Positions 34,607-56,150 of a DNA stretch of 64,000 nucleotides are shown here, piece after piece (within the stretch, counting starts at the first letter, position 1; every line of letters begins with the position of its first letter). The stretch lies in the NCBI RefSeq assembly GCF_058153355.1, contig NZ_CM177019.1. One strand, written 5' to 3'. The notes under the pieces were generated by a model. The model was not told the DNA's origin. It ran no database searches and worked only from the letters and a program-made list of their open reading frames with translations. Position numbers and translations under genes: made by a program.

Positions 34607-34682
34607 GAGTGATTCCTTTTTAAGTTTTGGTAAATTACGTGACCTTGACTAAATCAGGTCTGATAAGATGGTTAATCTGGTT

Positions 34683-35153
34683 TTAATGAATGAAGGGCAT
34701 ATGTTCGATGCCTGTATAAAGTAAATTGCTCCTGGCATTGATCGTATTGGTCAGACAGGCGTGACTTTCAATTTCTTTACCCATAGAGTTCATGACACTG
34801 ATATGAGCATCAGGCTGACCTTTGTACTCTTCATAAGTGATAGCCATAGCGCCTTCTATATTCTCTCCAGTTCCTCGCAATACAAAGACTCTATTGTCAG
34901 TAACATCATTTGCGGTGATGGACTGCTGCGCTTGACCTGAATGAGTATTCAGTTTGATGACTACGCTGCCTTTATCAGAACTTTTATCCTGTGATTTATA
35001 GGTAATATATACGATGTCTTTTTTATGACTCAGTGTCATAACCCCACCAGTATCAAGTGTGCATTTTAGATCCCAGTTTTCCTGACCAGCCAGTGAAGAA
35101 CTGCTTAACAACATTAGTATATAAAAAGATGCTTTTATTTTTACAATATTCAT
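34683..35153 (-). CDS. Putative secreted protein
   Basis: 156-aa ORF with signal peptide MNIVKIKASFYILMLLSSSSLAGQE. Confidence 0.55.
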   Translation of the reverse strand: MNIVKIKASFYILMLLSSSSLAGQENWDLKCTLDTGGVMTLSHKKDIVYITYKSQDKSSDKGSVVIKLNTHSGQAQQSITANDVTDNRVFVLRGTGENIEGAMAITYEEYKGQPDAHISVMNSMGKEIESHACLTNTINARSNLLYTGIEHMPFIH

Positions 35154-35189
35154 ATAGCCTGCTGATTAAGTGGGGCGACTATTCTTAAT

Positions 35190-35945
35190 TTATGAAGCTG
35201 CTCCTCTATTAATACTCTTTATCTGATGAGCAATATTTTTATATGAACGATGATTAGCCGAGTTCATTACATCATGGATATAAGGAAAATGAGGTAAGGA
35301 TGAGATGAACCGCTCACCCGCAGTGAGATGGCAGATGTCATCTCTGCGCACAAAACTCTCTGTGGTTAACTTCACCTGGATGATGCTGGCTACTGGAATA
35401 ACCCTGATTATTTCGGCCTGACAGGCAACTAAATACCATTTTCCTTCCGTGTGAATAAGACGATAAGGTTCAAAGACCGCGTGAGAATCATTGCCAGTCA
35501 GCAAATGAATACAGTTTTGTTGACAGATCGCCTGTATCAGCCGCTGAAAACATTCTGATGATACAACCGAGTCAGAATGCGATGAAGACCAGATAAGGCA
35601 GGGAGAATACGACGTTTCACCCGTGAGGTAATGCATCAACCTGCGATCAGGTGACGGAAATAATTGAGAGATTCCGGTGTTACGCATAAACGCCAGAACA
35701 TCTAATGAACTGTCTGTAAAGCGTTTCCCGTCAAGTCGCCAGCGCCCATTCTCACTAACGATATTAAGGTGGAGTAATCGCTGGTGGAAATCTCGCTGTA
35801 GCGTTCGTTCAGATACTCCAAACTCTTCTGCCAGGTTTTTTAGGTCAAGAGACTCTCCTGACAGTAACCGGCTAATAATCTGTGTCAGCCTGATGGCAAA
35901 CCGGTCATAACGAGTCGATGTAGTGTTCATCAGAAAAACGTCCAT
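35190..35945 (-). CDS. HTH plus WYL domain transcriptional regulator (YfjR-like)
   Basis: N-terminal HTH LSGESLDLKNLAEEFGVSERTLQRDFHQ; WYL signature EGKWYLVACQAE; track ORF begins at an upstream TTG, first ATG with plausible context used. Confidence 0.7.
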   Translation of the reverse strand: MDVFLMNTTSTRYDRFAIRLTQIISRLLSGESLDLKNLAEEFGVSERTLQRDFHQRLLHLNIVSENGRWRLDGKRFTDSSLDVLAFMRNTGISQLFPSPDRRLMHYLTGETSYSPCLIWSSSHSDSVVSSECFQRLIQAICQQNCIHLLTGNDSHAVFEPYRLIHTEGKWYLVACQAEIIRVIPVASIIQVKLTTESFVRRDDICHLTAGERFISSLPHFPYIHDVMNSANHRSYKNIAHQIKSINRGAAS

Positions 35946-36166
35946 GGATAACTTACTGTTTTTAATGATGTTATTATGAATCATGAGCACGACAGGATAT
36001 GTCGTAGTAACGGGAGGAATAGAGAAAAAACGTCCAGACAAATAACTAAGTAATATCCTGATTAACAATAACTATTTTTTCCAGAGACAGAACTGAAGCA
36101 GGTCGCGACATATCCTGTCGCTGAAACTCATAATTTTCAGGTGGCTTAACTCAGTGGGTAGATGTA

Positions 36167-37051
36167 TTAGAAAAACCAGTGCCATATTGCGGTAGCTGCA
36201 TTCTCCAGCCCTTCTCTGAGCACTCCCAACCCGTTGCGTATCATGTTGGGGAGAGGTATGGCCTCCAGAATCCTGCTCAATAATTCTCCCAACAAATCCG
36301 CGAAATCCTTTCGGGCCTTCGTCTCCGATTCTTTGGTGCGATGTTCTTTCCTGATCTGGCGAAAGACGCCACTGGTAGCCTCTGGTGGCAGGGCAAAAAT
36401 CATTGTTTCAACTATACGAGACATGTTGTAACCGGTTTTTGCTGAAACAGCATGCACCGGGTAAGGGGTAAAGAACTGGCGGGAAACGGCAGCACTTCTC
36501 GCTGTGAGCGTCATGAGTTGCTTCACTGAAGGAGATCCTTTTTCACGATCCCATTCCAGTGATGGCTCGGCTTTGTCAGCCTGGTTGATAACAAAAACAA
36601 TGCTGTCTGTCGATACGCCACAATCCAGTAGAAAACGGTGGAATTCTTCGTCTGTGGTACAGGCGCGGTCATCGGCTTTCATCACCCAGAGAATGAGATC
36701 CAGCTTCGGTAACTGTTCCTGATACATCTGGCGATATATCTCATCATGCTTCAGCGATTCACCTGCGCCCGGCAGATCGATCAGCGTCAGGCTGCGTCCT
36801 CCAGCGTTCAGGGTAAAATGCAAAGGTTTACGTGTGCAGCCTTCTGCATGGCTGACTGGGCTGAGAGGATGTTCAAAAAGAGCATTGCAAAGCGAGGATT
36901 TTCCGGCACCTGTTTTGCCCATGATGCCAATCACGGGTTCGTAATGAATACTCTGGCGTATATGCTCCAGAACCAAATCGGAGATATGTTCAGGAAGAAT
37001 GGATAAAGGTTGCTTCAGGACATTAATGCCCCGTTCAAAGGAATCAGACAT
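36167..37051 (-). CDS. P-loop GTPase (YfjP/YeeP/YkfA family)
   Basis: Walker A GIMGKTGAGKSS, DLPG and NQADK GTPase motifs; start at internal Met19. Confidence 0.8.
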   Translation of the reverse strand: MSDSFERGINVLKQPLSILPEHISDLVLEHIRQSIHYEPVIGIMGKTGAGKSSLCNALFEHPLSPVSHAEGCTRKPLHFTLNAGGRSLTLIDLPGAGESLKHDEIYRQMYQEQLPKLDLILWVMKADDRACTTDEEFHRFLLDCGVSTDSIVFVINQADKAEPSLEWDREKGSPSVKQLMTLTARSAAVSRQFFTPYPVHAVSAKTGYNMSRIVETMIFALPPEATSGVFRQIRKEHRTKESETKARKDFADLLGELLSRILEAIPLPNMIRNGLGVLREGLENAATAIWHWFF

Positions 37052-37215
37052 GTAGCCTCCGGAATGAAAAAATTCGATACAGCAACTTCGCTGCAATGTA
37101 TTCATTGCGGTAATACAGGTCTGTTTTTTTTTGCATTCGAATTACGGGGAGGAATGTGGTTTTGTGGAGCAAACCGGGGGCATTGCCCCGGTTCACTGAT
37201 ATGGTGAAATGATAT

Positions 37216-37455
37216 CTAACGTCGCATTACCCATTCATTCAGTTCTGACTCCAGCCAGCCAACGGATTGCCTTCCCAAGCGTTTTTGTTTTGGAAATGTT
37301 CCATCGTAGCGTGGCGATTTTGGATTAAGCCAGTCGTATATGGTTGAGCGTGAAATTCCCATTTTTTTCATTACATCTTTTAGCCTCAAGATCCTCGGTG
37401 AATCAGGAATATTTGCGTAACTGGATGTATGTAAGGAGGGAGGGTTCTGTAACAT
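37216..37455 (-). CDS. alpA: AlpA-family prophage regulatory protein
   Basis: 79-aa ORF with STIYDWLNPKSPRYDGTFPK HTH region. Confidence 0.75.
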   Translation of the reverse strand: MLQNPPSLHTSSYANIPDSPRILRLKDVMKKMGISRSTIYDWLNPKSPRYDGTFPKQKRLGRQSVGWLESELNEWVMRR

Positions 37456-37568
37456 CTAGGCTTCCTTAGTATGAGTTTGTTCGGGTGGGTCCATATTGCC
37501 AACCACGCTGGGGCTGTCATACACTGGAAGTAACATTAAAATAAAATCACTTTAGGGATTTACTTTTC

Positions 37569-38450
37569 ATGAAGGATGTGGGTGCGAATTTTTTTGATGA
37601 TTTCTATCTGCAAGTTTGTACCGCTTGTGAGGACAAACTTCTTGAGCTGGAATGGAAACTTGAAGTCGAAAAAAAGGAGAGCAACCAAGATGTTCTGCGC
37701 ACTTACAGGCAAAGAGCCTATGATAAAATTGAAGAATTTAAAATTATTGAGTATTCAAAAATACAATGTCAATATTTTGTAGATATGACTAATAGCGACA
37801 ATATACGCTACTCACAAGAGTTTATAAATGTTGATGGAATAATGGTTGAGAAACCTTTTATTTATAAGGAAACATATGCAGAATATCGGATTGAAATTCG
37901 AGGAAAAATGGACGGGTATAAACTGACAGGATTAGCAAGACTATATGATGCACATTATGAATATATATATCTATCTATGGCTTTAGAAGATTTTTACTGG
38001 GCGCAGTTCCAATATTCATTGGGCAATAAAAAAGAAAGTTGTAAGTTTCTTCTTGATGCTTATTCTTATATGAATGTCTGTATTTCGCGAGATGATAACC
38101 GAGACTCACCGAGTTTTCATCGATTAAGAAGTGGTTTTGATAAAGTATGCAGAAGAGCGCGCTCAAGCGCTGGAGGGAAAAATAAACTTGCAGAACTTGA
38201 ATATATTAAAGATACAGTTGTTATCTTACTTGAAGATATTCCTTCACATAGCGACTGGAAAAATAAACGTCAACTTCTTGAATATTTAATGCCCTATATT
38301 TGTAATAATGATAAAAAGGTCAATCCAGATAAATGGATAAATGATACAGGCGATAGAGAGGAAACTATCCGCCGCAGACTTAATAAATGGTTTACAGGTG
38401 ATCTAAAAGTAGAGATTGATAAAGTCCTAAAGAACAATACTAACAATTAA
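37569..38450 (+). CDS. Hypothetical protein (AT-rich island cargo)
   Basis: 293-aa ORF, no recognisable motif, soluble. Confidence 0.5.
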   Translation: MKDVGANFFDDFYLQVCTACEDKLLELEWKLEVEKKESNQDVLRTYRQRAYDKIEEFKIIEYSKIQCQYFVDMTNSDNIRYSQEFINVDGIMVEKPFIYKETYAEYRIEIRGKMDGYKLTGLARLYDAHYEYIYLSMALEDFYWAQFQYSLGNKKESCKFLLDAYSYMNVCISRDDNRDSPSFHRLRSGFDKVCRRARSSAGGKNKLAELEYIKDTVVILLEDIPSHSDWKNKRQLLEYLMPYICNNDKKVNPDKWINDTGDREETIRRRLNKWFTGDLKVEIDKVLKNNTNN

Positions 38451-38717
38451 TATTATTATGGTTTTGATATTTTTATGTCTATCAGGAGGGCTACTATACG
38501 ATCAGTCTTGATGGGTTTGAAATTACATCGCTATGAAAATACCCCACATAAATCTATTGGAAAACCAATCATTGTTAATATGACTATTGTTATGATGACT
38601 GTTGTAATTGTGTCTACACGAGAAATTGAATGAAATTTATAGGTTTGAAGTAGCCTTAGTGGTAGTCGAAAATAATTATGTAAATGGGCCTGCATTTTGC
38701 AAGAAGGCCCATTTACG

Positions 38718-39047
38718 TCAGGGGTAAATTATATATCCCATAATCGCACAGATTAACCGGTAATCACTCACGTAGAAGATTTCCGGATTCTCAGTGCTTT
38801 GTTCACCGATAAAGAAGACTTGAGCTCTCTCTTTAGCTTTTTTATTTACTGCTTCTTTTGCTTCTTCCTGCACAGTTTCAAGCTCATTCAAAAGCATAGT
38901 CTTTTTGGCTTTTGACCAGTCTCCCCACTCAATGTGTAGTTTATAGCTACGCGAGGGCTTAAACTTACCAGATTCGTCTTTTGCCCATTCTCCCGAGAGC
39001 GGAATGACAATTCGGTTTTCGTCTTGCTCAAATTTCTGCCATAACAA
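38718..39047 (-). CDS. Hypothetical small protein (doubtful)
   Basis: 109-aa ORF beginning with TTG and no RBS; only internal ATG at Met51. Confidence 0.25.
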   Translation of the reverse strand: MLWQKFEQDENRIVIPLSGEWAKDESGKFKPSRSYKLHIEWGDWSKAKKTMLLNELETVQEEAKEAVNKKAKERAQVFFIGEQSTENPEIFYVSDYRLICAIMGYIIYP

Positions 39048-39094
39048 CTGCGAATAAAAAACTCGGCGCTCAGGGTAGGGTTGAACCGGGTCTT

Positions 39095-39628
39095 TTAGTT
39101 TTTTAACACGGTCATGTAAGTATCGGCATTAATACCTGGGATAATTAATGACATACCACGGTCATACGGGAAGCGAATAAATGCCCTACAAATCTGGCGA
39201 ATAGCATTAACCGGGCGGCGGGATTGCCGCGCTGGAGCATTTCCCTCGCTGGATGCCGATGTTGTAGAACGTATTGGATTGGGTTTGTTGTTGTTACCAG
39301 TAGTGTCAGGATCAACAACGGGTCGATTTTCAATCAGTTTTAATCCTGCAGGCATCAAACCTGGTGCGCTATCTAACATGCGGCGGACGCTTTTCTTCTG
39401 CCCCTGTTTAACCACTGTGCTTTCTGCATCAGCATCGCAATTAATGTGCTCTTTTCCAGGCATTTTATTAAACGAAGGTCTTTTCTTACTTCCTTTTTGC
39501 CAAGCAGAAGGATACATCTCAATCCCACATCCCCAGCATACGTAACTGTTCGTATCTACAACATCAAGTAACCAAAGATCTTCTGCCTCAATAATCTCAC
39601 TGGTATATTTATCACGTGCAGATTCCAT
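39095..39628 (-). CDS. Hypothetical protein downstream of the STAND NTPase gene
   Basis: 177-aa ORF with strong RBS AAAGGAGA 4 nt before ATG; 45 bp after the upstream stop; Cys/His cluster CWGCG...HINC. Confidence 0.5.
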   Translation of the reverse strand: MESARDKYTSEIIEAEDLWLLDVVDTNSYVCWGCGIEMYPSAWQKGSKKRPSFNKMPGKEHINCDADAESTVVKQGQKKSVRRMLDSAPGLMPAGLKLIENRPVVDPDTTGNNNKPNPIRSTTSASSEGNAPARQSRRPVNAIRQICRAFIRFPYDRGMSLIIPGINADTYMTVLKN

Positions 39629-39673
39629 GATTTCTCCTTTAAACAGAATTCCTGTGAAGGCGGCTACTAGCCT

Positions 39674-42600
39674 TCATTCAAACCGTTGTTCCAATGCCTC
39701 ATCTTCCAATCGCTCGCGTTCTTTTTCCTTTTCAACCCAGTTAGTCAGTTTTTTATAAACAGCTCTAGCCGACTTAGAAATGTCTGCACGCTCGTGGGTG
39801 ACCAACCGGCCTATCGCTTCAACCCTGGGTTGCATCACGTTCGCACGACTACCGGACCATGATGAAGGTGCTACGTGTTCGGCAAAGATCTCAAGGACGG
39901 CTCGTGGCTCGGGTGAGGCTTCTAGAAATCTCAGAGCATCATCCTGCAAGCAAATAGGACTTTGCTCCCCGTCTTTTGACCATAGATTAATACCTGAAGC
40001 GACTGAAGCCCAAACCTGAGGGTCTTTAGTGGTCCCGCACCATTCAATCAAAATATCTACATCGATTTTCGCAATAGGAGACTGATGTGAATCATCATGA
40101 TTGATGAAATGCAGCCGCCTCTGTTGTTGATCCTCCGTACCATCAAAAATGCGACTGAGAAATTCTTTTGGCATCCATGCAGCGGTGATACCGATAGCGT
40201 CTTCGAAAGAAAAAATGTAGCCAAAATGCTCATCAACAACAGCAAAGATTGTATTCAGCCATTCTAGCTTTTCAGCCTCGTTGCCATCGAAGCGCAATGT
40301 GGCATCGATAACACGTTCCATTGCATAATCCAGATATCCGCCGAGATCGTTGTGATCTCTTTGGAACCTCTGGATTGCAGCGGATAGTCCAATTGTTCGT
40401 AGCGCAAGACCTAGTGTATCCGTAGCATCTCCTTTATCAGGTAGTTTCATACTCAATGCTTCCAATACTACTTCATCACCATTCGGTTTACTCAGCAGCC
40501 TTTGAGCAAGCTCGAGAACCCTGCTTTCTGGCAAATTAGAGAATTGCTCACCCCACAGAATTGCCCCATACATATGGGGCCGTATGTCAGAGTCATCCAG
40601 AAGCGACATGCAACGATCCAGATCGATTTCAGTAAACTCCTGCCAAGGATGTAGGTTGACTAATTCGAATCGAAGTTCGGAATGTTGTGCGCACTGATCG
40701 AGCAGTTCCTGCGCTAATGCTTTATCGATAGAATTCGTCTCTTCTATGAAACCTCGAATAACAGAAAAATCACTTTGAGATTTATGCTGTAGATTCATTT
40801 GAGTGATAAGTTTCTGCCAATAAACTCGTAGGTCAGGTGCTCCTTTAGCTAAGCCTTTACCGAATTCGACGCGATAGGGCATCCCATCTCGTAAGAATAA
40901 ATTAGGGCCTAACTCATCAAGTTCATGCGTGGATACTGCAAAGTCTTGCCCTAACTGGAACGCTTTTGCGTTAAGTATTTCCTTTATTTTTATGAATTTG
41001 TTAGGCCCCTCACGCTCAAAATCGGCATTCAGCGCCCAAAAATCACGCCCCTTACTGAGTACATAAGCCATAACTGCCGGAACCAAGTCATTAGGCTCCA
41101 ATTCTCGTTCCAATGTCACAAGTCCTTCCGGCAAAGGAGCTAAATCTTCGTTGTCATTTCTTTTGGTATGGGAAAAGTAAATTGTTGAGCGGACCGCTTT
41201 CCAGCCTTCACCCCAAGGACGATGGGCATGTAATTTGCGAGCCGCATCAATTAATTTTGACCTCATTCCTTCCTGACGCCAAATCCAGCGAAATTTATTA
41301 GCTAAGATCAGCCGAGCATCATCTTCAAGTTCGGGAACTCTTGAAGTTGCTAATCTCACCACAATGTCGATGAAGGTGATTAGCCACTCAACAAGCTCAT
41401 CGTAGCTGGGTCGAAATCCATAATCTCTTGGCCGAGCACCAAACTCATTAATCCCGAATCCTGTCCACGGTGGTCCGCCGAGAGCAGTTTCAAGCATTTC
41501 GAGCCCCAGCCTTCTACGTCCGGCCATACTTGAACCAATGCATTCATCCATGACCGCAACACGTTGTTCTAAAGAGGCATGGGTACCGGATAGATAAGGT
41601 TGGAAAAACCTCTTTATCTTATTTCGAGCCGAATCATAATTATTGCTCGCGCTTTCCTGATCTGCGATACGGATTAAGAGCTTAATGCATCGTTCAAAGT
41701 ATTTCGATTCATATGCAAGTAACTGCAACAATTTGATAATTGCTGTTCGTTGTGGGTTGTAGCGTGATTTAAAATGCTCAAAATTAGACGTAACAAGTGT
41801 TTCTTCAATCCGCTCAAGCAAAGCTCCCGGGGCGACTGGAGCGACATAATTCAGAATGCGTGTCGAAACATCATCTAGGTCTATTATTTTTCCAAGCAGC
41901 CCTTCGGGCTGTAACCAAGCTTCAACAATCTCTTTAGCCACAGCATGGCTGTGCAATAGTCCCAACCTGTGCGCGAACGACATCAATAATCGTTGTCGAT
42001 CCGGAGCTTCAAAGGTCGTCCTAAGTTGATCAATCGGAATACTATTAAGTGCAGATGCTGCCAACTTGTTAGCAATGGCATGGGGAAGGATGGCTCTCCA
42101 GTGGGATCTTTTCTGAACAACGTGACGTTCCATCAACTTCGTAACAGTTTTGAATAACTGGATTTTGGGATACCCAGAGAGCGCACCCAATATTTCCAGT
42201 TCATCGGTAGCTGCATCTGAACTAGATATTGAGAACGAATACACCAGTGACAATATTTCAGCTTGCTCCCGTAAATGGCCGTCGGGATGATTACGTTGTT
42301 CAAACAAGCGATTAAACAACTGCGCATCTGAAAGTAGGGCTAAACTCTCACCTTCCTCCACTCTTTCCGCTATAGCCAAAGCCACTCTTGCATTCCCATC
42401 TGCGAACTTTGCAATCCGACGGGCATTATTCTGACCAATAGAAGGGAAGCGACGGATAAGAAGTTGCTCTGCCACCTCTGGACCATCTGTCTCAATGTGG
42501 ATGACCTCAGTTGTCTGTGGTTTGTCATCCCTAATGTCGTACTCGATCGTGATGAGACTTACTTCTTTCCCTGCGGCTGATACTTTGCTGGCAAGCGAAG

Positions 42601-43525
42601 CATGGAGTTCTGATGGGCAATTATCAAGGATCATAATTGCTCGTCGGCCTTCAGCGAGCAGGTTATCAAGCATTGCTGTAGCCGACGGTACTGGCTCATA
42701 GCCAGTATCAACATAAATAGCTACTGTCCGGTCAAGCGCATCTGTTCCAACAGTATCATCAAAGAGCGCCTGAACGATTCGAGTCTTCCCAACACCAGAC
42801 AATCCTGTAATACGAACAGCCTTATTCGTCGAACGGATCAGTGCTCGCATTGGGTTAATTGCTTCATCAATTTTGAGTTTTTGCCCCTTTCCCGATGGTA
42901 AAGTAATGGTTACGCTTGGGGCTGAGATTAAAGTGTCTGTAACACCTTGTGGTGGATTGCTCCAGGCTCCGTAGGGTTGCCAACCGGAATACCCTTGCCC
43001 AAGCTTTGCTTTTACCCACAGCATGACTGATGGATGTTGGCGCAACCATTGGATGAGTTTGGAGCGGTCGTAGAAATCAAGATGAAGATAACTTTCGTTA
43101 GGATCATCTTTTACTGCATCTCTCATCGCTTTGAGACGATTCTTCTTTCCTGACGGCGAGCAATCATCACCCAGGCTGACAATGATGTAACTGCCTTGCT
43201 TTCTGGCTTGTTCAGAAATGATGGGAGAAAGTGCTTTTCCGGTGCCAATTTCCCTCTCGATTGCAGCCTTAGGCATCTTATGTTTCTTTGCCTGAAAGAC
43301 CGTATCAGGTCTTACAAGAAAGCCTGCTTTCAGTTGATCAACTGGAACCTGAACATGGATGTCAATTCCTCCGTCAGGGGCTGTAATTGAACCAGACCAA
43401 TTTACACATGCTGGGCTATGGCCGTGCATTGCCACTTCAGCTTCTGCTAGCCGAGCGATCAGCTCTTCCAACTGGATATCGGAGAGCCGAAGTAATTCGT
43501 CCTTTTCAATGTCAAAGATTGCCAC
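39674..43525 (-). CDS. STAND-type P-loop NTPase with N-terminal Mrr-like PD-(D/E)xK nuclease motif (Avs-like candidate)
   Basis: 1283-aa ORF (GTG start); DGGIDIH...VFQAKKH Mrr_cat-like motif near residues 50-80; Walker A GLSGVGKT near residue 245; Walker B-like AIMILDNC; about 900 aa of helical C-terminus. Confidence 0.6.
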   Translation of the reverse strand: MAIFDIEKDELLRLSDIQLEELIARLAEAEVAMHGHSPACVNWSGSITAPDGGIDIHVQVPVDQLKAGFLVRPDTVFQAKKHKMPKAAIEREIGTGKALSPIISEQARKQGSYIIVSLGDDCSPSGKKNRLKAMRDAVKDDPNESYLHLDFYDRSKLIQWLRQHPSVMLWVKAKLGQGYSGWQPYGAWSNPPQGVTDTLISAPSVTITLPSGKGQKLKIDEAINPMRALIRSTNKAVRITGLSGVGKTRIVQALFDDTVGTDALDRTVAIYVDTGYEPVPSATAMLDNLLAEGRRAIMILDNCPSELHASLASKVSAAGKEVSLITIEYDIRDDKPQTTEVIHIETDGPEVAEQLLIRRFPSIGQNNARRIAKFADGNARVALAIAERVEEGESLALLSDAQLFNRLFEQRNHPDGHLREQAEILSLVYSFSISSSDAATDELEILGALSGYPKIQLFKTVTKLMERHVVQKRSHWRAILPHAIANKLAASALNSIPIDQLRTTFEAPDRQRLLMSFAHRLGLLHSHAVAKEIVEAWLQPEGLLGKIIDLDDVSTRILNYVAPVAPGALLERIEETLVTSNFEHFKSRYNPQRTAIIKLLQLLAYESKYFERCIKLLIRIADQESASNNYDSARNKIKRFFQPYLSGTHASLEQRVAVMDECIGSSMAGRRRLGLEMLETALGGPPWTGFGINEFGARPRDYGFRPSYDELVEWLITFIDIVVRLATSRVPELEDDARLILANKFRWIWRQEGMRSKLIDAARKLHAHRPWGEGWKAVRSTIYFSHTKRNDNEDLAPLPEGLVTLERELEPNDLVPAVMAYVLSKGRDFWALNADFEREGPNKFIKIKEILNAKAFQLGQDFAVSTHELDELGPNLFLRDGMPYRVEFGKGLAKGAPDLRVYWQKLITQMNLQHKSQSDFSVIRGFIEETNSIDKALAQELLDQCAQHSELRFELVNLHPWQEFTEIDLDRCMSLLDDSDIRPHMYGAILWGEQFSNLPESRVLELAQRLLSKPNGDEVVLEALSMKLPDKGDATDTLGLALRTIGLSAAIQRFQRDHNDLGGYLDYAMERVIDATLRFDGNEAEKLEWLNTIFAVVDEHFGYIFSFEDAIGITAAWMPKEFLSRIFDGTEDQQQRRLHFINHDDSHQSPIAKIDVDILIEWCGTTKDPQVWASVASGINLWSKDGEQSPICLQDDALRFLEASPEPRAVLEIFAEHVAPSSWSGSRANVMQPRVEAIGRLVTHERADISKSARAVYKKLTNWVEKEKERERLEDEALEQRFE

Positions 43526-43991
43526 ATCCTAACCCTATTAAAGATACTGCGACTATATAAAAAGTTACCCTTATTCTAACCAATGACAGAAGGAATGTCC
43601 CTTAAACCGTTGCAATTAAAACCATTCTCATCAAGTAGTTAAGATTTTCTTACTCAGCACTATGATGTTGATCTTACCCACTTTGCGTCAAACTATTAGT
43701 ATGTATAAAGCACATTGCTGGCCTGATTAAGAAATGGATTGATATGTGAGTTAATGTCATTTATGAGCTTAAAGCTATTTTTAATCCCCTTTGCTTTACA
43801 ACTCTTTATATTATTTCATTCTTATTTACACCAATATTTATTGGTATGATGGTTTAATTTAATTCATTTTTGTTTTTTTGTTTGAAGCACATTGAAAGGA
43901 TATTATTATTTTCTCCTTCATGTTGAAAACAATTTAATTGGGCGGGTTTGGTTCGATATTATTAATATCTTTTTCAAAGAAATTATTTATA

Positions 43992-44000
43992 TGGTATAAT
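43992..44000 (+). promoter_or_regulatory. Candidate extended -10 promoter for the nuclease-helicase operon
   Basis: TGgTATAAT 33 bp upstream of ATG 44033 in an AT-rich divergent intergenic region; RBS AAGAGGG at 44022-44028. Confidence 0.4.
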
Positions 44001-44032
44001 GCAATAAAATCGTATTGAGGTAAGAGGGTACT

Positions 44033-46248
44033 ATGAGTGGATCTTTTGATTTCTTAGCTGGTTCTTTGGCTCTTGAAAATAAACCTTTCCATATGCAGGT
44101 TGCAGAGCTAATAAAAAATAAGTTTCGTCATTGTGAGGGATATATTGGCTATAAGCTTGCAACTTTGGGACGGGCATCGGACTCCGATGTTCCAGATTTT
44201 ATCATTATACAAAAGAACATGGCATAATTTTAGTTGACATGGTTGAAAGTAAGGTTTCTCGTGCGGATGAGGTGCAGGGGAATGAGGTTTGGTATTATGA
44301 GCATGGAGGTTCGAGTGTAGCAAGGAATTTTATTGTCGAGTTGTATGAGGAGGAGGTAAGAAGTAGATTAAAAAACGATGCAAATTTCTACAACAGAAGA
44401 AAAAAAACATGCACAGTTCCGATTACTAGCGCTGTTATTTTTTGTAAAAATAATAATAGTGAGATAGACAATTTCTATCAAGAGTATGCTGATTATGAAA
44501 GTTCAGCTATTGAATATGGCGAGATTGAGAATTGGTTAGATAGCGTTGAAGAAGGGTTCAATTGCGATTCTAAAGTTCTGGGGCGAATTTTTTCATTGTT
44601 AGAGGGGACGTTTATATATGAAAATAAAAAAATTCTCGATGAAGAACCACCCCTTAACACTGTGAATGATTATATCAAAAAATCTCTAAATATAACATTT
44701 AATCAAGATCACTCACAACGTATTGCTTCAATGCAACTAACCCCGGGCCCTCAGAGAATTCGTGGCTTGGCCGGAACAGGTAAGACGATAGTTCTTTCAT
44801 TAAAAGCTGCGATAACGCACAAAAAATTTCCAGATTATAAAATATTATATTTATTTAATACACAAAGCTTATATCAAAATGTGCAGAGTTCAATCGCCAG
44901 ATACTATACTTTAGAAGCCAAAAAAGCGCCAGATTTTGAATCGAATCTAAATGTCTTCCATGCGTGGGGTGGTAGGCAGAAACCGGGACTGTATTCATAT
45001 ATTTGCCAACAGTATGGATTAACTCCACTAACATTAGGAGATGTACGTGGAGCAAGTGATGCCTTAGCTGTCATATATGCAGAACTTCTCAAAAAAATCG
45101 GTGGTGATATAAAGCCTGAATATGATCTTATTTTAATAGATGAAGCCCAAGATTTTCCTAAAGAGTTGTTTGAAGTGGTCTTTAAACTAGCAAAGGGCAA
45201 ACCTCATGAGAAAAGGATCGTTTGGGCGTATGATGAATTCCAGTCATTGAAAGACACTCAAATTAAAGGTCCATCTGAGCTATTTGGTTTGGCCAAAGAT
45301 GGCACCCCAAATATGAGTGATGATGTTTTAGATGGATTCTATCCTGGTGACATAAAAAAAGATATTGTTTTATCCAATTGCTATAGGACTCCTCGTCCTG
45401 CTCTTATGACTGCTCACGGAGTAGCATTAGGACTTTATACTAATAAGCCGAATGAAATGTTTTATAACCATGATGAATGGAAAGCTATTGGCTATAAAGT
45501 TTTAAATCCTCAGACAAAAATCATTGCAAAAGGCAATGATGTGCAAATAGAGAGACCTAATGAAAATAGTCTAAATCTGTTGGAAGGAATTATGACAGAG
45601 CAGGGTAAGAGGGCCCTTAACCTTATCCAGACTAAGGTGGAAAATGATCGGGAAAGTCAATATGAATATATTGCAAGTAACATCAAACGTTTAATTGATG
45701 AGGAAAATGTCTCGCCTGAAGAAATAGTCATAATTAATTTGAAGTCCTCTAGTAACAAAGATGAGATGCTACGCATTCAATTCATCTTAAATAATTACGG
45801 TATTCACTCTGTAATTCCCGGTTACGTTGAAAGCTCAGATGTCTTTAAACCCAAGGGGTTCGTTACAATCACAACCCCTTTCAGGGCTAAAGGGAATGAA
45901 GCTAATATTGTATTTATTTTAAATAGCCAGTTAGTTGTTAATGATTTTTCATTAAGGATGCGTAATGCATTTTTTGTAGCAGTAACTCGAACAAGAGGAT
46001 GGTGTTATATTGTTGGTTATGGAGAAAAAATGCAAATGCTTGTGGACGAAATTTCAGGAATCAAAAGAGATTTCCCTATATTTAATTTCATTTGTCCTGA
46101 CCCTGATGATGTCAAAGCACGAAAAAGTTATCTCCACAAATCAGACTCTGAGATCAATGAGATGCAAAGAGTACTGGATTTAGTTAATAATAACGAAGAG
46201 TTAAGACGACTGCTACAGGAGCAGCTCATTGATAAGAAAGGAGATTAA
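44033..46248 (+). CDS. PD-(D/E)xK/NERD-like nuclease fused to SF1 (UvrD-like) helicase, apparently frameshifted (Nhi-like candidate)
   Basis: Track ORFs 44033-44227 (64 aa) and 44239-46248 (669 aa) join by a 1-nt shift in an A4 run at 44211-44214; helicase motifs GLAGTGKT, LILIDEAQDF, NCYRTPRP, TPFRAKGNEANIVFIL, VAVTRTRGW; N-terminal D...ExK (PDFIII...VDMVESK). Confidence 0.65.
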
Positions 46249-46250
46249 AA

Positions 46251-46922
46251 TTGAATTTCTCATTAGTGCAGCAAAGCTTAAACCATGTCGAAGCACTTTT
46301 AAAACCTGTAACTCAACAAAAATTAATAGAGTTTAAAGAAAGAGAGAAGGTCATAAGTTGGACAAATAGGAAGCCAGGAATTTACAATGAAGTCTACTAT
46401 CCTATTGAATATCAATGTGTAATTGATGCAAGGCAGTACTCATTATTGCTTCGAGATGGCGATTTTTTTCAATTTTTTTATGAGTTTGATGCGAAAACTG
46501 GCAATCTGAAGAAAGCTAAGTTGGCTTTCTATCCCTCACCAATTGATTGTAGAAATTCGTTGGATGATCTCAATGAAGCAGCTGAATTTGCTTTTGATCA
46601 TAATGAAGAACTCTATAATCATCTTGATAATTGGATTTCGCTATTGGAAATAAAAAACTATTTTCCAGCAAATACATCTCAAGTTAGATTTGATTATGAT
46701 AGTACGGTTACTACACATGAGAAAGCACATCTGCAGTTTAGTAGTGTAAATAAACTTAGACTTCCGGCTGACTTTTTTCCTTTGCCATATGCATTTGTAT
46801 TAATGGTTTCTGATCTTATTAATGGATGCTCAAAGGTAGATGCTAGACATATAAGCTTTACTAAGAGAAACAGCCTAAGATCAAATGTTTCTAATAGAAT
46901 CATAACCTTGAAATCACAGTGA
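46251..46922 (+). CDS. Hypothetical protein, translationally coupled partner of the nuclease-helicase
   Basis: 223-aa ORF with TTG start 3 nt after the upstream stop; RBS AAAGGAG at 46238-46244. Confidence 0.5.
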   Translation: MNFSLVQQSLNHVEALLKPVTQQKLIEFKEREKVISWTNRKPGIYNEVYYPIEYQCVIDARQYSLLLRDGDFFQFFYEFDAKTGNLKKAKLAFYPSPIDCRNSLDDLNEAAEFAFDHNEELYNHLDNWISLLEIKNYFPANTSQVRFDYDSTVTTHEKAHLQFSSVNKLRLPADFFPLPYAFVLMVSDLINGCSKVDARHISFTKRNSLRSNVSNRIITLKSQ

Positions 46923-46925
46923 ATT

Positions 46926-46961
46926 AACAAGCCTCTTTTATAAGGATATAAGAGGCTTGTT
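46926..46961 (+). terminator. Rho-independent terminator-like hairpin after the two-gene module
   Basis: AACAAGCCTCTT / AAGAGGCTTGTT 12-bp stem followed by ATTATTT. Confidence 0.5.
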
Positions 46962-47372
46962 ATTATTTCGCTAAATCTGATCACTGTCGAGAATTGATTG
47001 ATTTTTTGTGATTATTTATTCCATTCTGAGTTCATTGCCGATTTTATATGTATGTATTTTGTATCGGCTTATCTTGGCTTATTAAGTCTAGCATCACACA
47101 ATGCTTTTCAGGAAATCATCTTACCTATTAACCATATTATTACCGGCCCAACATTTCTCGCATTTACAGCTGGTAGCTCCTGTGTGTAAACGCTATTAAT
47201 CTCATACTCATTGGTTTAATATTAACTTTGAACTTCTGGAGTGCAGATCACCAATCCTAATATTACTACTAAATAGCTGCGCCTAATAACGCGACACCCG
47301 CCGTTTACTGTCTGGTGGCTTAACCTGCAAGGGCTGGCTGAAAGTGGGACACTATTCCGCGCAGCTATTTAG

Positions 47373-48614
47373 TCACCCAACTAGCTTCATTCCTTTTATC
47401 CCACCTTCAATCATGCTTCCACGATCCGCTGCCATCACAAAATTTGCCCACCATTGCATCATCGGGCGACGCTGTTCCAGGTAATCGCTGCGGTTATAAG
47501 CACGACGAACCTCATTCTTATCCACATGGGCCAATGCTGCCTCAATGACATCAGGCGGAAAGCCTTGTTCATTAAGAGCCGTACTGGCAATTGATCTCAG
47601 ACCATGCGAAACAAGCACACCACCAAAACCTGCGCGTTTTAGTGAGGCGTTAACAGTCTGACTGTTCATTGGCTGGTTGGGCTTGATACGGCTGGGAAAG
47701 ATAAATTCTCGGTTGCCGCTTAGCGGTTTCATCATCTCCAGCACAGCTATTGCTTCATCTGACAATGGAACAGTATGATCGCGGTTCATTTTCATGCGTG
47801 CTGCAGGAATCTTCCACTCTCGCGCTTCTATGTCTACCTCTTCCCAGCGAGCTTCAGCCGCTTCGGCAGGGCGGGTAATAGTAAGAAGTTGCCACATGAA
47901 CAGGCAGCGTGTGGAAAGGCTAATGCTGGCTGTTCGCATTGTCTGCATCAATTGAGGTAGCTGATCCGGTCGAATGCTGGGCATGTTCTTTTTCTGAGGC
48001 TTCTCGAAGGCTTTACCGATATTAACGCTGGGAACAGCATCAATCAGCCCTGTGTTTTGGGCATAGATCATGACCTCATTAATGCGCTGACACAGGCGAC
48101 GAACGGTTTCCAGTGCTCCTCTGGCCTGAACTGGTTGGACGGCCTGAACCAGTGTGTGTGCTTTAATATCTGTAACGCTAATGTCGCCAATTGCAGGAAA
48201 GACATCTCTCTCAAGAGAGCGCCAGATATCCTCTGCGTAGTCTTCGGTCACACTGGCTTTCTTCACATTCCACCAACGTTCAGCCACGAGCTGGAAAGTA
48301 TTGGTTTTAGCTTCCAGCGAACTGCGAAGTTGTTCTTGTTGATGTTCCTGGGGATCAATTTGTTTCGCCAGAAGAGAGCGGGACTCTGCCCGATAGTTTC
48401 GGGCATCGGCAAGGGTAACTGACGGGTAGGGGCCTATGCTCTTCTTCGCACGTTTCTTAGTGACAGGGCGAATGTAGCGAAACTGCCAGATTTTACTTCC
48501 GCTGGATTTGATGAGTAGCTCAAGGCCATCACCATCATAGAGAACGTAGTCCGCTTCTTTGGGTTTGGCGGATTCGATTTCTTTAACGGATAGAGGTTTG
48601 GTTTGTCTTGCCAT
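47373..48614 (-). CDS. intA: P4-type tyrosine integrase (IntA/SlpA family)
   Basis: 413-aa ORF MARQTKPLSVKEIESAKPKEADYVLYDGDGLELLIKSSGSKIWQFRY...; C-terminal catalytic region; adjacent to ssrA. Confidence 0.9.
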   Translation of the reverse strand: MARQTKPLSVKEIESAKPKEADYVLYDGDGLELLIKSSGSKIWQFRYIRPVTKKRAKKSIGPYPSVTLADARNYRAESRSLLAKQIDPQEHQQEQLRSSLEAKTNTFQLVAERWWNVKKASVTEDYAEDIWRSLERDVFPAIGDISVTDIKAHTLVQAVQPVQARGALETVRRLCQRINEVMIYAQNTGLIDAVPSVNIGKAFEKPQKKNMPSIRPDQLPQLMQTMRTASISLSTRCLFMWQLLTITRPAEAAEARWEEVDIEAREWKIPAARMKMNRDHTVPLSDEAIAVLEMMKPLSGNREFIFPSRIKPNQPMNSQTVNASLKRAGFGGVLVSHGLRSIASTALNEQGFPPDVIEAALAHVDKNEVRRAYNRSDYLEQRRPMMQWWANFVMAADRGSMIEGGIKGMKLVG

Positions 48615-48818
48615 TGCCGGGTTTCCATAGTTTTAGGCACCTCAAAAACAATAAAGCTTTATGAGGTGCCTAACAAGGTGCCTAAAAGGTTCGGATTTAA
48701 TTAGTTCTCTTCGGACTTCGCGGGACAAATTGAGGGCACAAAAAAGCCCGCAGGGCTTGCGCCGTGCGGACTCTTAGGACTTCATCGGATGACTCTGGTA
48801 ATCACCGATGGAGAATTT

Positions 48819-49181
48819 TGGTGGAGCTGGCGGGAGTTGAACCCGCGTCCGAAATTCCTACATCCTCGGTACTACATGCTTAGTCAGTCTTTACATTCGC
48901 TTGCCAGCTGCGGACGGACACGCCACTAACAAACTAGCCTGATTAAGTTTTAACGCTTCAACCCCAGGCAGGGCTTCCACGCGATCTCTTTTGGGTTTGA
49001 CCTCTCTTGATCCCCGTCCTAAGAGCGGAGGCTAGGGAGAGAGGGCTCTAAGCAGGTTATTAAGCTGCTAAAGCGTAGTTTTCGTCGTTTGCGACTATTT
49101 TTTGCGGCTTTTTACGAGGCCAACCGCCCCTCGGCATGCACCTTGGGTTTCGCAAATCCCGTCGAATCCAGAATCAGCCCC
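48819..49181 (-). ncRNA. ssrA: tmRNA (SsrA)
   Basis: Reverse complement reads GGGGCTGATTCTGGATTCGACGGGATTTGCG...GTTCAACTCCCGCCAGCTCCACCA (363 nt), with the tag-peptide reading frame region. Confidence 0.95.
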
Positions 49182-49395
49182 AATGTGTAACGGTAAGTAT
49201 ACCAGATTCATGAGTGCCATGACCAGCATCAATGGCGTTATCGTTAAAGATTTAGCACCCATGTAGCCTGATTTTTATTCGATTAAGCAATGGGATGGCA
49301 ACATTTGTGCCGGATGTGATAGCCAATAAGATGTTCATTCGCGCCGCCGGAGAGGGGGGCGCGGTGAGGAACTGGTCAATAATTGGAGTGCAGAT

Positions 49396-49878
49396 TTAAC
49401 GGTGCGCGTTTTTCATGATACGCGCTTTATCCACCTGCCATTCGCGTTCTTTGATGTCTGAACGTTTATCGTGCTGTTTCTTACCTTTAGCGACGCCGAT
49501 TTTCACTTTGCACCAGGCATTTTTCCAGTACAGGGAGAGCGCCACTACGGTATAGCCTTCTCGATTGACGCGACCGTACAATGAGTCCAGTTCGCGCTGG
49601 TTGAGAAGTAACTTGCGGGTACGGGTAGGATCGCACACCACATGCGTGGATGCCACAGCCATTGGCGTGATGTTAGCGCCAAACAGAAATGCTTCTCCAT
49701 CACGTAGAAGGACGTAGCTGTCGCTGATATTGGCTTTTCCTGCGCGCAGGGATTTAACCTCCCAGCCTTGCAGGGCAAGTCCCGCTTCGAACTCTTCTTC
49801 GATAAAGTATTCGTGACGGGCGCGCTTGTTAAGCGCGATGGTCGCTGAACCAGGTTTATGTGCTTTTTTCTTCGTCAT
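49396..49878 (-). CDS. smpB: SsrA-binding protein SmpB
   Basis: 160-aa [51 protein letters not shown]... Confidence 0.95.
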
Positions 49879-50009
49879 AAGCGTCGTGAATCATCGGTAA
49901 TCTGAAATCGAAAACACCCCATATCAATCCTGCGGGGGACAAGGCTCTATCTTAGCATGAACCCGATGTTACCCAGCGCCGGGATAGCGTTTTTTTTACA
50001 GCAGGATAA

Positions 50010-50486
50010 ATGATATTATTTGTTGGATTTTTGTTGATGGAAATTGTTATGCCTCAGATTAGCCGGACCGCACTGGTACCCTACAGCGCGGAGCAAATGT
50101 ATCAGTTAGTGAATGACGTTCAGTCTTATCCTCAGTTTTTGCCGGGTTGTACCGGAAGTCGGATTCTGGAGTCCACCCCTGGGCAGATGACCGCGGCGGT
50201 AGATGTCTCTAAGGCTGGGATCAGCAAAACGTTTACTACCCGCAACCAGTTGACCAGTAACCAAAGTATTCTTATGAATCTGGTGGATGGGCCGTTCAAG
50301 AAATTGATCGGTGGATGGAAGTTTACGCCGCTGAGCCAGGAGGCGTGTCGTATCGAGTTTCATCTCGACTTTGAGTTTACCAATAAGTTGATTGAACTCG
50401 CCTTTGGCCGCGTGTTTAAAGAGCTGGCGGCTAATATGGTCCAGGCTTTTACGGTTCGTGCGAAAGAGGTTTACAGTGCCAGGTAA
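50010..50486 (+). CDS. ratA: Ribosome association toxin RatA (YfjG, polyketide cyclase/SRPBCC fold)
   Basis: 158-aa ORF; K-12 synteny after smpB. Confidence 0.8.
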
Positions 50487-50766
50487 AATTGCCGTTGAGG
50501 TGGCTTATGCTCTACCTGAGAAGCAGTACCTGCAGCGCGTGACGCTGCAGGAGGGCGCGACGGTTGAAGAAGCTATTCGCACCAGTGGCTTGCTGGAATT
50601 GCGTACCGATATCGATTTAACTAAAAACAAAGTCGGCATTTACAGCCGTCCGGCAAAACTGAGCGATACCGTGCATGATGGCGATCGGGTGGAGATTTAT
50701 CGTCCTCTCATTGCCGATCCGAAAGAGCTTCGCAGGCAACGAGCAGAAAAATCAGCGAATAAATAA
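50476..50766 (+). CDS. ratB: RatB (YfjF, UPF0125)
   Basis: 96-aa ORF (V/M)[26 protein letters not shown]... from GTG overlapping the ratA stop. Confidence 0.8.
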
Positions 50767-50792
50767 CAGACAGAAAAAGGTGCTCATTGAGC

Positions 50793-52218
50793 TAATGCCG
50801 ATCAGTTAAGGATCAGTTGACCGATCCAGTGGCTGTGTAAGAATCCGGAAACGCTCACTTGTTTCCGGATTTTTTTATGCACATTGGACAGGCTCTTGAT
50901 CTGGTATCCCGTTACGATTCTCTGCGTAACCCACTGACTTCTCTGGGGGATTACCTCGACCCCGAACTCATCTCTCGTTGCCTTGCCGAATCAGGTACTG
51001 TAACGCTACGCAAGCGCCGTCTTCCCCTCGAAATGATGGTCTGGTGTATTGTTGGCATGGCGCTTGAGCGTAAAGAACCTCTTCACCAGATTGTGAATCG
51101 CCTGGACATCATGCTGCCGGGCAATCGCCCCTTCGTTGCCCCCAGTGCCGTTATTCAGGCCCGCCAGCGCCTGGGAAGTGAGGCTGTCCGCCGCGTGTTC
51201 ACGAAAACAGCGCAGCTCTGGCATAACGCCACGCCGCATCCGCACTGGTGCGGCCTGACCCTGCTGGCCATCGATGGTGTGTTCTGGCGCACACCGGATA
51301 CACCAGAGAACGATGCAGCCTTCCCCCGCCAGACACATGCCGGGAACCCGGCGCTCTACCCGCAGGTCAAAATGGTCTGCCAGATGGAACTGACCAGCCA
51401 TCTGCTGACGGCTGCAGCCTTCGGCACGATGAAGAACAGCGAAAATGAGCTTGCTGAGCAACTTATAGAACAAACCGGCGATAACACTCTGACGTTAATG
51501 GATAAAGGTTATTACTCACTGGGACTGTTAAATGCCTGGAGCCTGGCGGGAGAACACCGCCACTGGATGATACCTCTCAGAAAGGGAGCGCAATATGAAG
51601 AGATCAGAAAACTGGGTAAAGGCGATCATCTGGTGAAGCTGAAAACCAGCCCGCAGGCACGAAAAAAGTGGCCGGGACTGGGAAATGAAGTGACAGCCCG
51701 CCTGCTGACCGTGACGCGCAAAGGAAAAGTCTGCCATCTGCTGACGTCGATGACGGACGCCATGCGCTTCCCCGGAGGAGAAATGGCGGATCTGTACAGT
51801 CATCGCTGGGAAATCGAACTGGGATACAGGGAGATAAAACAGACGATGCAACTGAGCAGGCTGACGCTGAGAAGTAAAAAGCCGGAGCTTGTGGAGCAAG
51901 AGCTGTGGGGTGTCTTACTGGCTTATAATCTGGTGAGATATCAGATGATTAAAATGGCGGAACATCTGAAAGGTTACTGGCCGAATCAACTGAGTTTCTC
52001 AGAATCATGCGGAATGGTGATGAGAATGCTGATGACATTGCAGGGCGCTTCACCGGGACGTATACCGGAGCTGATGCGCGATCTTGCAAGTATGGGACAA
52101 CTTGTGAAATTACCGACAGGAAGGGAAAGGGCCTTCCCGAGAGTGGTAAAGGAGAGGCCCTGGAAATACCCCACAGCCCCGAAAAAGAGCCAGTCAGTTG
52201 CTTAACTGACTGGCATTA
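50793..52218 (+). mobile_element. IS4 (1426 bp) with 11-bp TSD GCTCATTGAGC
   Basis: Ends TAATGCCGATCAGTTAAGG... and ...CTTAACTGACTGGCATTA; TSD at 50782-50792 and 52219-52229; length matches IS4. Confidence 0.9.
50877..52205 (+). CDS. IS4 transposase
   Basis: 442-aa [34 protein letters not shown]... (start at Met7 of the track ORF). Confidence 0.9.
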
Positions 52219-52263
52219 GCTCATTGAGCACCTTTTTTAACGTCTTTGAGAGCAACTTTATTA

Positions 52264-52605
52264 TTAGTTACCACTCAGCGCAGGTTTGTTATCAATGTTG
52301 GTCAACACCCCGCTACTGTTAAAGGTCAGCGTCAGCGTTTGCTGCGTTACACCTTCATGACCTGGTTGCTGGCGGAAGACATAGAACCAGGTATTCGTAC
52401 CAAATGGATCGGACATCAGCGGTGTACCCAATGCGTACGCAACTTGTTGTTGCGTCATGCCAACACGTATTTTGGATACGTCGTTAGCGGTCAGATAGTT
52501 CCCCTGGTTGATGTCAGGACGGTAAACCACTCGCTCCAGAGTGGAACAGCCTGCGGTCAACATCAATAGTACTGCTGCTGCAGCAGTCAGCGTTTTACAG
52601 CGCAT
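52264..52605 (-). CDS. bamE: Outer membrane protein assembly factor BamE (SmpA)
   Basis: 113-aa lipoprotein [41 protein letters not shown]... Confidence 0.9.
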
Positions 52606-52753
52606 AGTGATTTGATTCCTTTTCGGGCCCGAGCAGTACGTGGCTCATCTGTAATATGCCGATGATAATAGACCTTTCATCACTTTAAAACCTTTTGCTT
52701 TCCGGTCTTACGGCGTTTTGCTGTTTACTCTGACCGTGAAGCAGGAAAAAAGT

Positions 52754-54415
52754 TTACGCCGCAAGCAGTTCTTTCGCATTCGCCAGTGTGTTACGTGTGA
52801 CTTCACTGCCACCAAGCAGGCGCGCCAACTCTTGTAACCGCGCTTTTTTATCCAGGGATTGCATATGCGTTTCTGTCATCGCACCATCGGTTTCTTTGCT
52901 GACAAAATAGTGTTGATGACCACATCCCGCGACTTGTGGCAGGTGGGTAACACACATCACCTGAGTTGATTCGCCAAGTTGACGTAGCAGTTTGCCGACA
53001 ACTGCCGCTGTTGGGCCGCTAATCCCTACATCCACTTCATCAAAAATCAGTGCCGGGGTTTCCATTTTACGCGCGGTAATGACCTGGATTGCCAATGCGA
53101 TGCGGGACAACTCACCACCGGATGCGACTTTGGCAATAGGCTGCATTGGCTGACCTGGGTTGGTGGTTACCCGAAACTCAATACGATCAGCGCCGTCAGC
53201 GCCCAGGTGATGCTCGTCAAATTTAACATCGATCGTAAACTGCCCATGTGGCATAGAGAGTGCATGCATACTATCGGTGATCAGCTGTGCTAACTCATTT
53301 GCATAATGCTGGCGTTGCTGGTGTAACGCGCGCGCCGTTTCCAGTGCCTGCTGATGATGTTTCGTTACCGCCAGCGCGAGCGTTTCTTGTGAGTCGGCCT
53401 GATCGTCCAGTTGCTGCTGTTCTTCCAGTAGCGACTGGTAATACTGTGGCAATGCCTCAGGGCTGACGTGATGTTTACGTGCCAGCGAAATCTGTTTTGA
53501 GATACGCTGTTCAAGTTCAAACAGTCGGTTGGGATCGAGATCCAGACGATCGCAGTAGTGGCGCAGTTCGTCGCTGGCTTCAGCAATCTGGATGGTAGCT
53601 TCTTCCAGCATATCAAGTACGCCGGACAGTTTGCTGTCCATGCCAATCAATTCGCTCACCAGTTGTTTAGCCGTGTAAAGCTGACTTTGCAGGTTTGCGT
53701 CTTCACCGTCGGCCATTAATGCCAATGCATTCTGGCTGGTGGTCAGCAATTGACCGCTGTTCGCCAGACGTTTGTACTCTTCGTCGATTTGCTCAAACTC
53801 TCCGGGCTGAGGATTAAATTCGTTAAGTTCTTTTAATTGGTATTGCAGCAGCTCCGCACGAGCGGCGCGTTCCTGACTTAACTGTTGATGATGCGCGAGG
53901 TCGCGGCAGCTTTGATGCCACAACTGATAACGTGCGGTCATTTCCTGAAGCAGAGAGGTTTCATTAGCATAGCCATCAAGCAGGAATTTTTGGTGCTCGG
54001 GTTTGGTGAGTAATTGATGGGCGTGCTGACCATGGATCTGAATGAGCAACTGGCCCAGTTCGCGCAGTTGTGACAGTGGAACAGCTGTACCGTTGATAAA
54101 ACCACGAGAGCGACCATCGCTACTGATTACGCGACGAAGCAGGCATTCACGGCCATCTTCCAGTTGGTTTTCTTCCAGCCAGCGCAGTGCTGCGGGTGTA
54201 TCTTTCAGAGAAAAACGGGCGCACAGATCTGCGCGAGCAGCGCCGGTACGCACCATGTCGGCTTCAGCGCGACCGCCGAGACAAAGGCCCAGGGCATCTA
54301 TTGCAATAGATTTACCCGCGCCAGTCTCGCCGGTGATTACGGTCATGCCGCTGTGAAAATCAATCTCAAGCTCACGAACGATAGCAAAGTTGCTGATGGT
54401 CAGTTGTGCCAACAT
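52754..54415 (-). CDS. recN: DNA repair protein RecN
   Basis: 553-aa SMC-like ORF with Walker A GETGAGKS. Confidence 0.95.
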
Positions 54416-54441
54416 AGTTGTTTTCCTGTATGAAAAACCAT

Positions 54442-54483
54442 TACTGTTATTGCGTACAGTATAAACTGGTTTTATATACAGTA
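54442..54483. promoter_or_regulatory. Two LexA (SOS) boxes upstream of recN
   Basis: TACTGTtattgcgtACAGTA (54442-54461) and aaCTGGttttatatACAGta (54464-54483) fit CTGT-N8-ACAG. Confidence 0.7.
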
Positions 54484-54500
54484 AAGAGGCTGGCGTAAAA

Positions 54501-56096
<1,596 letters not shown>

Positions 56097-56150
56097 TTTC
56101 TGTTTTCGTCATAAGTCACGGCCCTGCATGCGAATGCCGGGCCGTTTTCG

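Follow-up and report, generated by a model that had tools for sequence, protein, structure and literature searches.

The window (the whole stretch of DNA analysed, 64,000 nt) carries a horizontally acquired island adjoining ssrA, with a GC content of 36 % versus ~50 % in the flanks. Within it lies a defence pair consisting of a helicase gene and a gene for a DUF2290 protein; the island also carries the defence system PD-Lambda-4. The pair is flanked by PD-Lambda-4_A (39674–43525, minus strand; PADLOC) on one side and by a tyrosine integrase on the other (Table 1). The DUF2290 gene is co-oriented with the helicase gene and starts 3 nt past its stop codon. AAGAGGG is found 5–11 nt before the ATG at 44033, and a promoter-like site lies upstream of the operon. 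The PD-Lambda-4 plus Helicase-DUF2290 island is conserved on many contigs. In the E. coli genome FEX669 (locus L001, 11426–15704) and in three further loci (L006, L011 and L012), the island integrase and ssrA are separated by a second element in tandem, which is prophage-like (yfdP/Q/R genes) and has an integrase of its own.

Table 1. Features of the Helicase+DUF2290 locus and its island flank (window coordinates)
Feature	Position	Strand	Description
Promoter-like site upstream of operon	43971..44000	+	TTTTCA, 18-nt spacer, TG-TATAAT; consensus match only
Helicase gene, 5' fragment	44033..44227	+	Codons 1–59 in native frame, then QKNMA out of frame and TAA; residues 1–59 identical to WP_097520888.1
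1-nt deletion site	44208..44209	+	Window T-A versus intact T-A-A, at the ATA Ile59/ACA Thr60 junction
A4 run	44211..44214	+	Length constant in intact and broken alleles; not the lesion
Helicase gene, 3' part, shifted frame	44212..46248	+	Native residues 61–738; rest of nuclease-fold domain, SF1 helicase core, UvrD_C_2
DUF2290 partner gene	46251..46922	+	Intact, 223 aa; PADLOC DUF2290 PDLC02998 (2.5e-13); related contigs have PF10053 on this gene
P4-type tyrosine integrase of island	47373..48614	-	Arm-DNA-bind_3, Phage_int_M, Phage_integrase
ssrA (tmRNA)	48819..49181	-	Island flank on the integrase side; integrase adjoins

The helicase gene does not appear as one reading frame. An ORF of 64 aa (MSGSF...IIIQKNMA) starting at 44033 ends with TAA at 44225–44227, and the following ORF of 669 aa (44239–46248) is offset from it by one base. 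The frame of the 669-aa ORF is open 5' of its ATG, where it reads ...YHYTKEHGIILVDMVES; the two ORFs overlap in this open frame, and the insertion of one base yields a single ORF. A first-pass annotation of the window had described this arrangement, including the open upstream extension and the AAAA run at 44211–44214, and its coordinates were reproduced from the window sequence and the ORF listing. We conclude that the 64-aa and 669-aa ORFs are two halves of one gene. With one A restored, the window encodes a protein of 738 aa that is identical to E. coli WP_097520888.1 at 738/738 positions. The expected continuous protein was thus recovered, at a length of 738 aa and not of about 735 aa as first proposed.

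The missing base had been assigned to the A4 run. However, alignment with the intact orthologue of FEX669 is unambiguous: FEX669 reads ATC ATT ATA ACA AAA GAA CAT (I-I-I-T-K-E-H) and the window ATC ATT ATA CAA AAG AAC ATG. The lost base is therefore an A from the AA dinucleotide preceding C44210, two bases upstream of the run, so that ATA-ACA (Ile59/Thr60) has become ATA-CA. Extending the run from A4 to A5 would also restore the frame, but it does not reverse the actual event, since it yields IIIQKEHG and the ancestral peptide is IIITKEHG. We obtained 12 related loci through exact-protein look-ups and counted exact patterns in all loci fetched. The intact allele reads TTATAACAAAAGAAC and the window allele TTATACAAAAGAAC. 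The pattern ATAACAAAAG was present in 11 intact loci, where the window has ATACAAAAG, and the deleted pattern was confined to L004, which is the window's own clone. The proposed comparison of A5 with A4 in other strains gave A4 throughout, in intact and broken alleles alike (13/13 sequences examined).

By its sequence, the broken gene is assigned to the helicase of the Rst Helicase+DUF2290 anti-phage system. With the intact orthologue (identical to the repaired window protein) as query, PADLOC matched the 'Helicase' profile PDLC03002 with an E value of 1.7e-110, aligning residues 34–730 to profile positions 28–684 of 707. The pair thus has a full-length helicase profile match and an adjacent DUF2290 gene, but its two frames are not both intact, the helicase being split into 64 aa and 669 aa by the 1-nt deletion. 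In FEX669, WP_097520888.1 is encoded by a single 738-aa CDS annotated as 'DEAD/DEAH box helicase' and followed by the DUF2290 gene. The Pfam search of the protein gave matches to parts of an SF1 helicase only (UvrD_C_2 at 1.3e-8 and weak N-terminal-lobe matches) and none to a nuclease domain, NERD included. The NCBIfam family NF053713 (STM2767-family DEAD/DEAH box helicase) has a related helicase core, corresponding to residues 162–409; membership in this family was rejected, as the score was 138 bits against a curated cut-off of 550.

Searching 5.8 billion proteins gave 2,293 homologues with E<=1e-10. Among the best 120 of these, 105 are 725–750 aa long with 98–100 % query coverage, and none is split at the lesion junction; their hosts include Pseudomonas, Acinetobacter, Xanthomonas, Yersinia, Aeromonas, Klebsiella and Salmonella. 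The helicase of the Helicase+DUF2290 family is a single polypeptide. Orthologues forming two separate genes at the junction, or homologues starting at the downstream ATG together with reads confirming A4, had been named as findings that would speak against a frameshift; the orthologues are single genes for ~738 aa, and no homologue with such a start was found.

Conservation is good over the first 60 residues, and an alignment of 109 sequences has no gap at the junction. G36, Y40, P54, F56, G64 and D69 are invariant in this alignment, D69 being the sole acidic invariant; E15 and E72 are strongly conserved acidic residues (each at least 86 %), and D52 is conserved at 74 % and invariant in an alignment of 24 sequences. 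We modelled the structure of residues 1–230 from the 24-sequence alignment (pLDDT 79.7). The model has the alpha-beta-beta-beta-alpha-beta core fold of a PD-(D/E)xK (restriction-endonuclease-like) nuclease domain. The first-pass annotation had read an intact D...ExK motif (D55...E72-S-K74), of which E72 stands as strongly conserved, but 79 % of homologues have Ser at position 55 and only 45 % carry K74. A predicted nuclease-helicase, as it had been called, is supported by the model at the level of the fold, and the catalytic signature is canonical only in part. In the model the break sits where strand 56–60 ends, in the beta-hairpin leading to strand 64–71, which carries G64, D69 and E72, and would therefore cut the core of the domain. 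E15, D52, P54 and F56 are encoded before the break, G64, D69 and E72 after it, and the 669-aa ORF lacks one third of the N-terminal domain.

A megablast of 43950–46950 found the locus in 1 of 5,426 complete E. coli genomes, namely FEX669 (99.7 % DNA identity, one base longer). The nearest intact relatives are L008 (CP057210.1, 99.3 %) and L013 (SRR11949192, 99.6 %), which carry the intergenic indel alleles of the window and not the deletion. Apart from the deletion, one synonymous base separates the helicase CDS of the window from L008 and L013, and five synonymous bases separate it from FEX669. So few and exclusively synonymous differences show a very recent lesion in a gene that purifying selection had preserved up to that point. 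The deletion is specific to one clone of E. coli. In the core genes of the window (1–25000 and 48900–64000), identity to the complete E. coli genomes that match best is only ~96.3–98.3 %, and to CP057210.1 it is 98.2 %, which places the window in a fairly divergent lineage of Escherichia.

Two neighbouring genes carry 1-nt deletions as well. In PD-Lambda-4_B (38718–39628, minus strand), a deletion at 39104 (AAA to AA, plus strand) splits 303 aa into 177 and 109 aa; the gene is intact in every other related locus spanning this site. With PD-Lambda-4_B and the helicase both frameshifted, two adjacent defence systems are broken in one clone. In an HTH/WYL-domain gene (35190–35930, minus strand), a clone-specific deletion at 35235 changes the last ~10 residues from ...SYKKYCSSDKEY to ...SYKNIAHQIKSINRGAAS. 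WYL proteins are often regulators of defence islands.

The first-pass annotation had left three explanations side by side: a homopolymer sequencing error, an inactivating mutation and an on/off slippage site. If an error had dropped one A from the consensus, the gene of the isolate would be intact, and several observations fit this: the gene is otherwise perfectly preserved, two further coding 1-nt deletions (39104 and 35235) occur within 15 kb in comparison with the closest relatives, and over 12.9 kb the window differs from FEX669 by five indels, each of them a single nucleotide missing from an A/T run in the window. We rejected the latter as an error signature, because at three of the five sites (37066, 38515 and 47246) the window state is shared by L008 and L013, both intact at 44208 and 39104, and is thus a polymorphism of the lineage. 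The broken allele recurs on five contigs, including two separate NCBI record pairs with the exact 64-aa and 669-aa products (EGO8354572.1/EGO8354571.1, with EGO8354571.1 and EGO8354572.1 tagged E0V34_22070 and E0V34_22075, and HFG3511294.1/HFG3511293.1) and a Logan contig (SRR31441161) that is 100 % identical to 34239–50821 of the window (16,583 bases). All five could stem from one clone and one platform, which would make a systematic artefact possible. The affected site is an AA dinucleotide and not a long homopolymer, which is atypical for a consensus error. We also listed every indel in ~40 kb of flanking core against E. coli N96 and IAI39 and found no frameshifted housekeeping gene (nrdE...gabD; smpB...trmD). 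The indels in these flanks include both insertions and deletions and fall mostly between genes; coding ones occur only in a ygaQ-like amylase pseudogene and, as a compensated pair, in ypjA. An error-prone assembly was rejected on these grounds. Given the recurrence of the allele, the indels shared with relatives, the clean core flanks and the dinucleotide site, we regard an artefact as unlikely.

The reading of the lesion as a phase-variable switch, in which a slippage-prone A tract would turn the defence gene on and off, starts from the A4 run beside the lesion, the only such feature, and from a 1-nt change that toggles the frame. Contingency loci have tracts of ~7 or more bases, or multi-copy repeats. 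As it does not vary in length and the deletion (AA to A) sits in the two-base run upstream, the slippage site has no basis. Moreover, no near-identical pair of loci differs in tract length alone, the closest intact loci differing elsewhere too; neither a long tract nor one varying between near-identical strains was found, and we consider a switch extremely improbable. Leaky or programmed -1 frameshifting at CAA-AAG could restore a useful full-length protein (T60Q), since tRNA-Lys slipping from AAG to AAA would reach the correct frame ahead of the TAA, and the site (A_AAG, 44212–44215) is a shift-prone tetranucleotide in E. coli. However, no orthologue has the frameshift, so this cannot be a conserved programmed site; an X XXY YYZ heptamer is missing, as the CAA codon in the P site could not re-pair with ACA; and no stimulatory structure was found downstream, where the RNA folds no better than shuffled sequences (z-score -0.13). 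With conservation in orthologues, slippery heptamer and stimulatory structure all missing from this site, A_AAG could at most allow slippage at a low background level, and a useful product of frameshifting is highly improbable. The split gene might also still work, either as two polypeptides or through a 669-aa helicase re-initiated at ATG 44239. The TAA lies 11 nt before this ATG, a distance at which termination-reinitiation is conceivable, and neither the helicase core nor the DUF2290 partner is damaged. On the other hand, the ATG has no Shine-Dalgarno sequence before it in the window, no homologue is split at the junction or starts there, and in the model the break lies inside a beta-hairpin (strands 56–60 and 64–71) of a compact conserved domain. 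This ATG is the native Met70, and position 70 is Val in 77 % of homologues in the 109-sequence alignment. The dozen shorter homologue entries start at scattered positions (23, 38, 53, 58, 59, 165 and others), as expected of copies that are partial or have decayed, with position 70 not among the starts; a conserved short isoform was therefore rejected, and a functional split gene is very unlikely. We give a similarly small chance to a frameshift that is not null, in which a low level of -1 slipping by tRNA-Lys on CAA-AAG, or a restart at ATG 44239, would supply a trickle of helicase and an attenuated defence. Were this so, the clone would keep a weakened system beside the frameshifted PD-Lambda-4_B, and selection for tolerance of plasmids or prophages could favour the attenuation.

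Two features of the core flanks were recorded in passing. An IS4-family element (50793–52218), whose sequence matches the IS4 of E. coli IAI39 at 99.8 % identity, lies between rnfH (yfjF) and bamE, and the short-read Logan contig of the same clone ends at its edge. The ygaQ-like alpha-amylase-family gene (14709–16962, minus strand) consists of three ORFs, versus a single 750-aa CDS in E. coli N96, from which it differs by insertions of 1 nt at 15290 and 3 nt at 14837.

Among known systems, the locus is closest in organization to Rst Helicase+DUF2290, described by Rousset et al. (2022) from hotspots in P4-like satellites, with reported inhibition of T7 (PMC9122126). Like that system (PADLOC profiles PDLC03002 and PDLC02998/02999), it has an SF1/UvrD-like helicase of ~735 aa followed in the same order by DUF2290, and it adjoins a P4-type integrase in a mobile island. 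Unlike it, the window helicase is broken at codon 60 and predicted to be non-functional, and the island lies at ssrA beside PD-Lambda-4, not in the psu-int hotspot of P4 satellites (PMC9122126). The pair PA1372/PA1371 of P. aeruginosa (San Millan et al. 2015, PMC4410645) has been identified as a Helicase+DUF2290 system (PMC11637435), also in an acquired low-GC island; P. aeruginosa homologues are ~60 % identical to the helicase over 99 % of its length. Other systems combine a PD-(D/E)xK-fold domain with an SF1 or SF2 helicase, namely Nhi, AbiO, NERD+UvrD candidates, Hachiman HamAB, Hna and Upx. The helicase cores of Nhi, AbiO and GajB gave weak PADLOC matches over a short helicase-core stretch only (E 1e-8 to 1e-4). 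In contrast to these fused or paired nuclease-helicase systems, Helicase+DUF2290 needs a separate DUF2290 partner, and the window protein matches neither NERD nor another Pfam nuclease.

Taken together, the evidence favours the inactivating mutation among the explanations first offered, one gene with a nuclease fold and an SF1 helicase being split by the loss of one base. We put the probability that this is a genuine, recent and clone-specific inactivating 1-nt deletion in the helicase gene at roughly 0.84. The loss of one A at the junction of codons 59 and 60 breaks the helicase frame, and translation from the native start stops after 64 residues. Some re-initiation at ATG 44239, giving a truncated 669-aa protein, is possible. 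Functional protein would be absent, and the two-gene defence system is probably dead in this clone.

The loss may be neutral decay of an accessory gene, or it may have been selected. Helicase PA1372 of P. aeruginosa acquires frameshift and stop mutations that compensate the cost of plasmid pNUK73 (PMC4410645). These loss-of-function mutations strike a homologue of the window helicase, but they arose in the laboratory under pNUK73 selection and the window is from a natural clone; by analogy, relief of a plasmid cost may have caused the loss here.

The broken gene is a pseudogene of no unusual kind, belonging to a known defence system, and it raises no new question. For annotation, it means that the NCBI 'hypothetical proteins' EGO8354571.1 and EGO8354572.1 are the halves of one pseudogene. 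In this clone, defence-system finders should count both the Helicase+DUF2290 locus and PD-Lambda-4 next to it as incomplete. For the biology of these systems, the deletion is another natural case of the rapid decay of an accessory defence gene, in parallel with the laboratory losses of PA1372.
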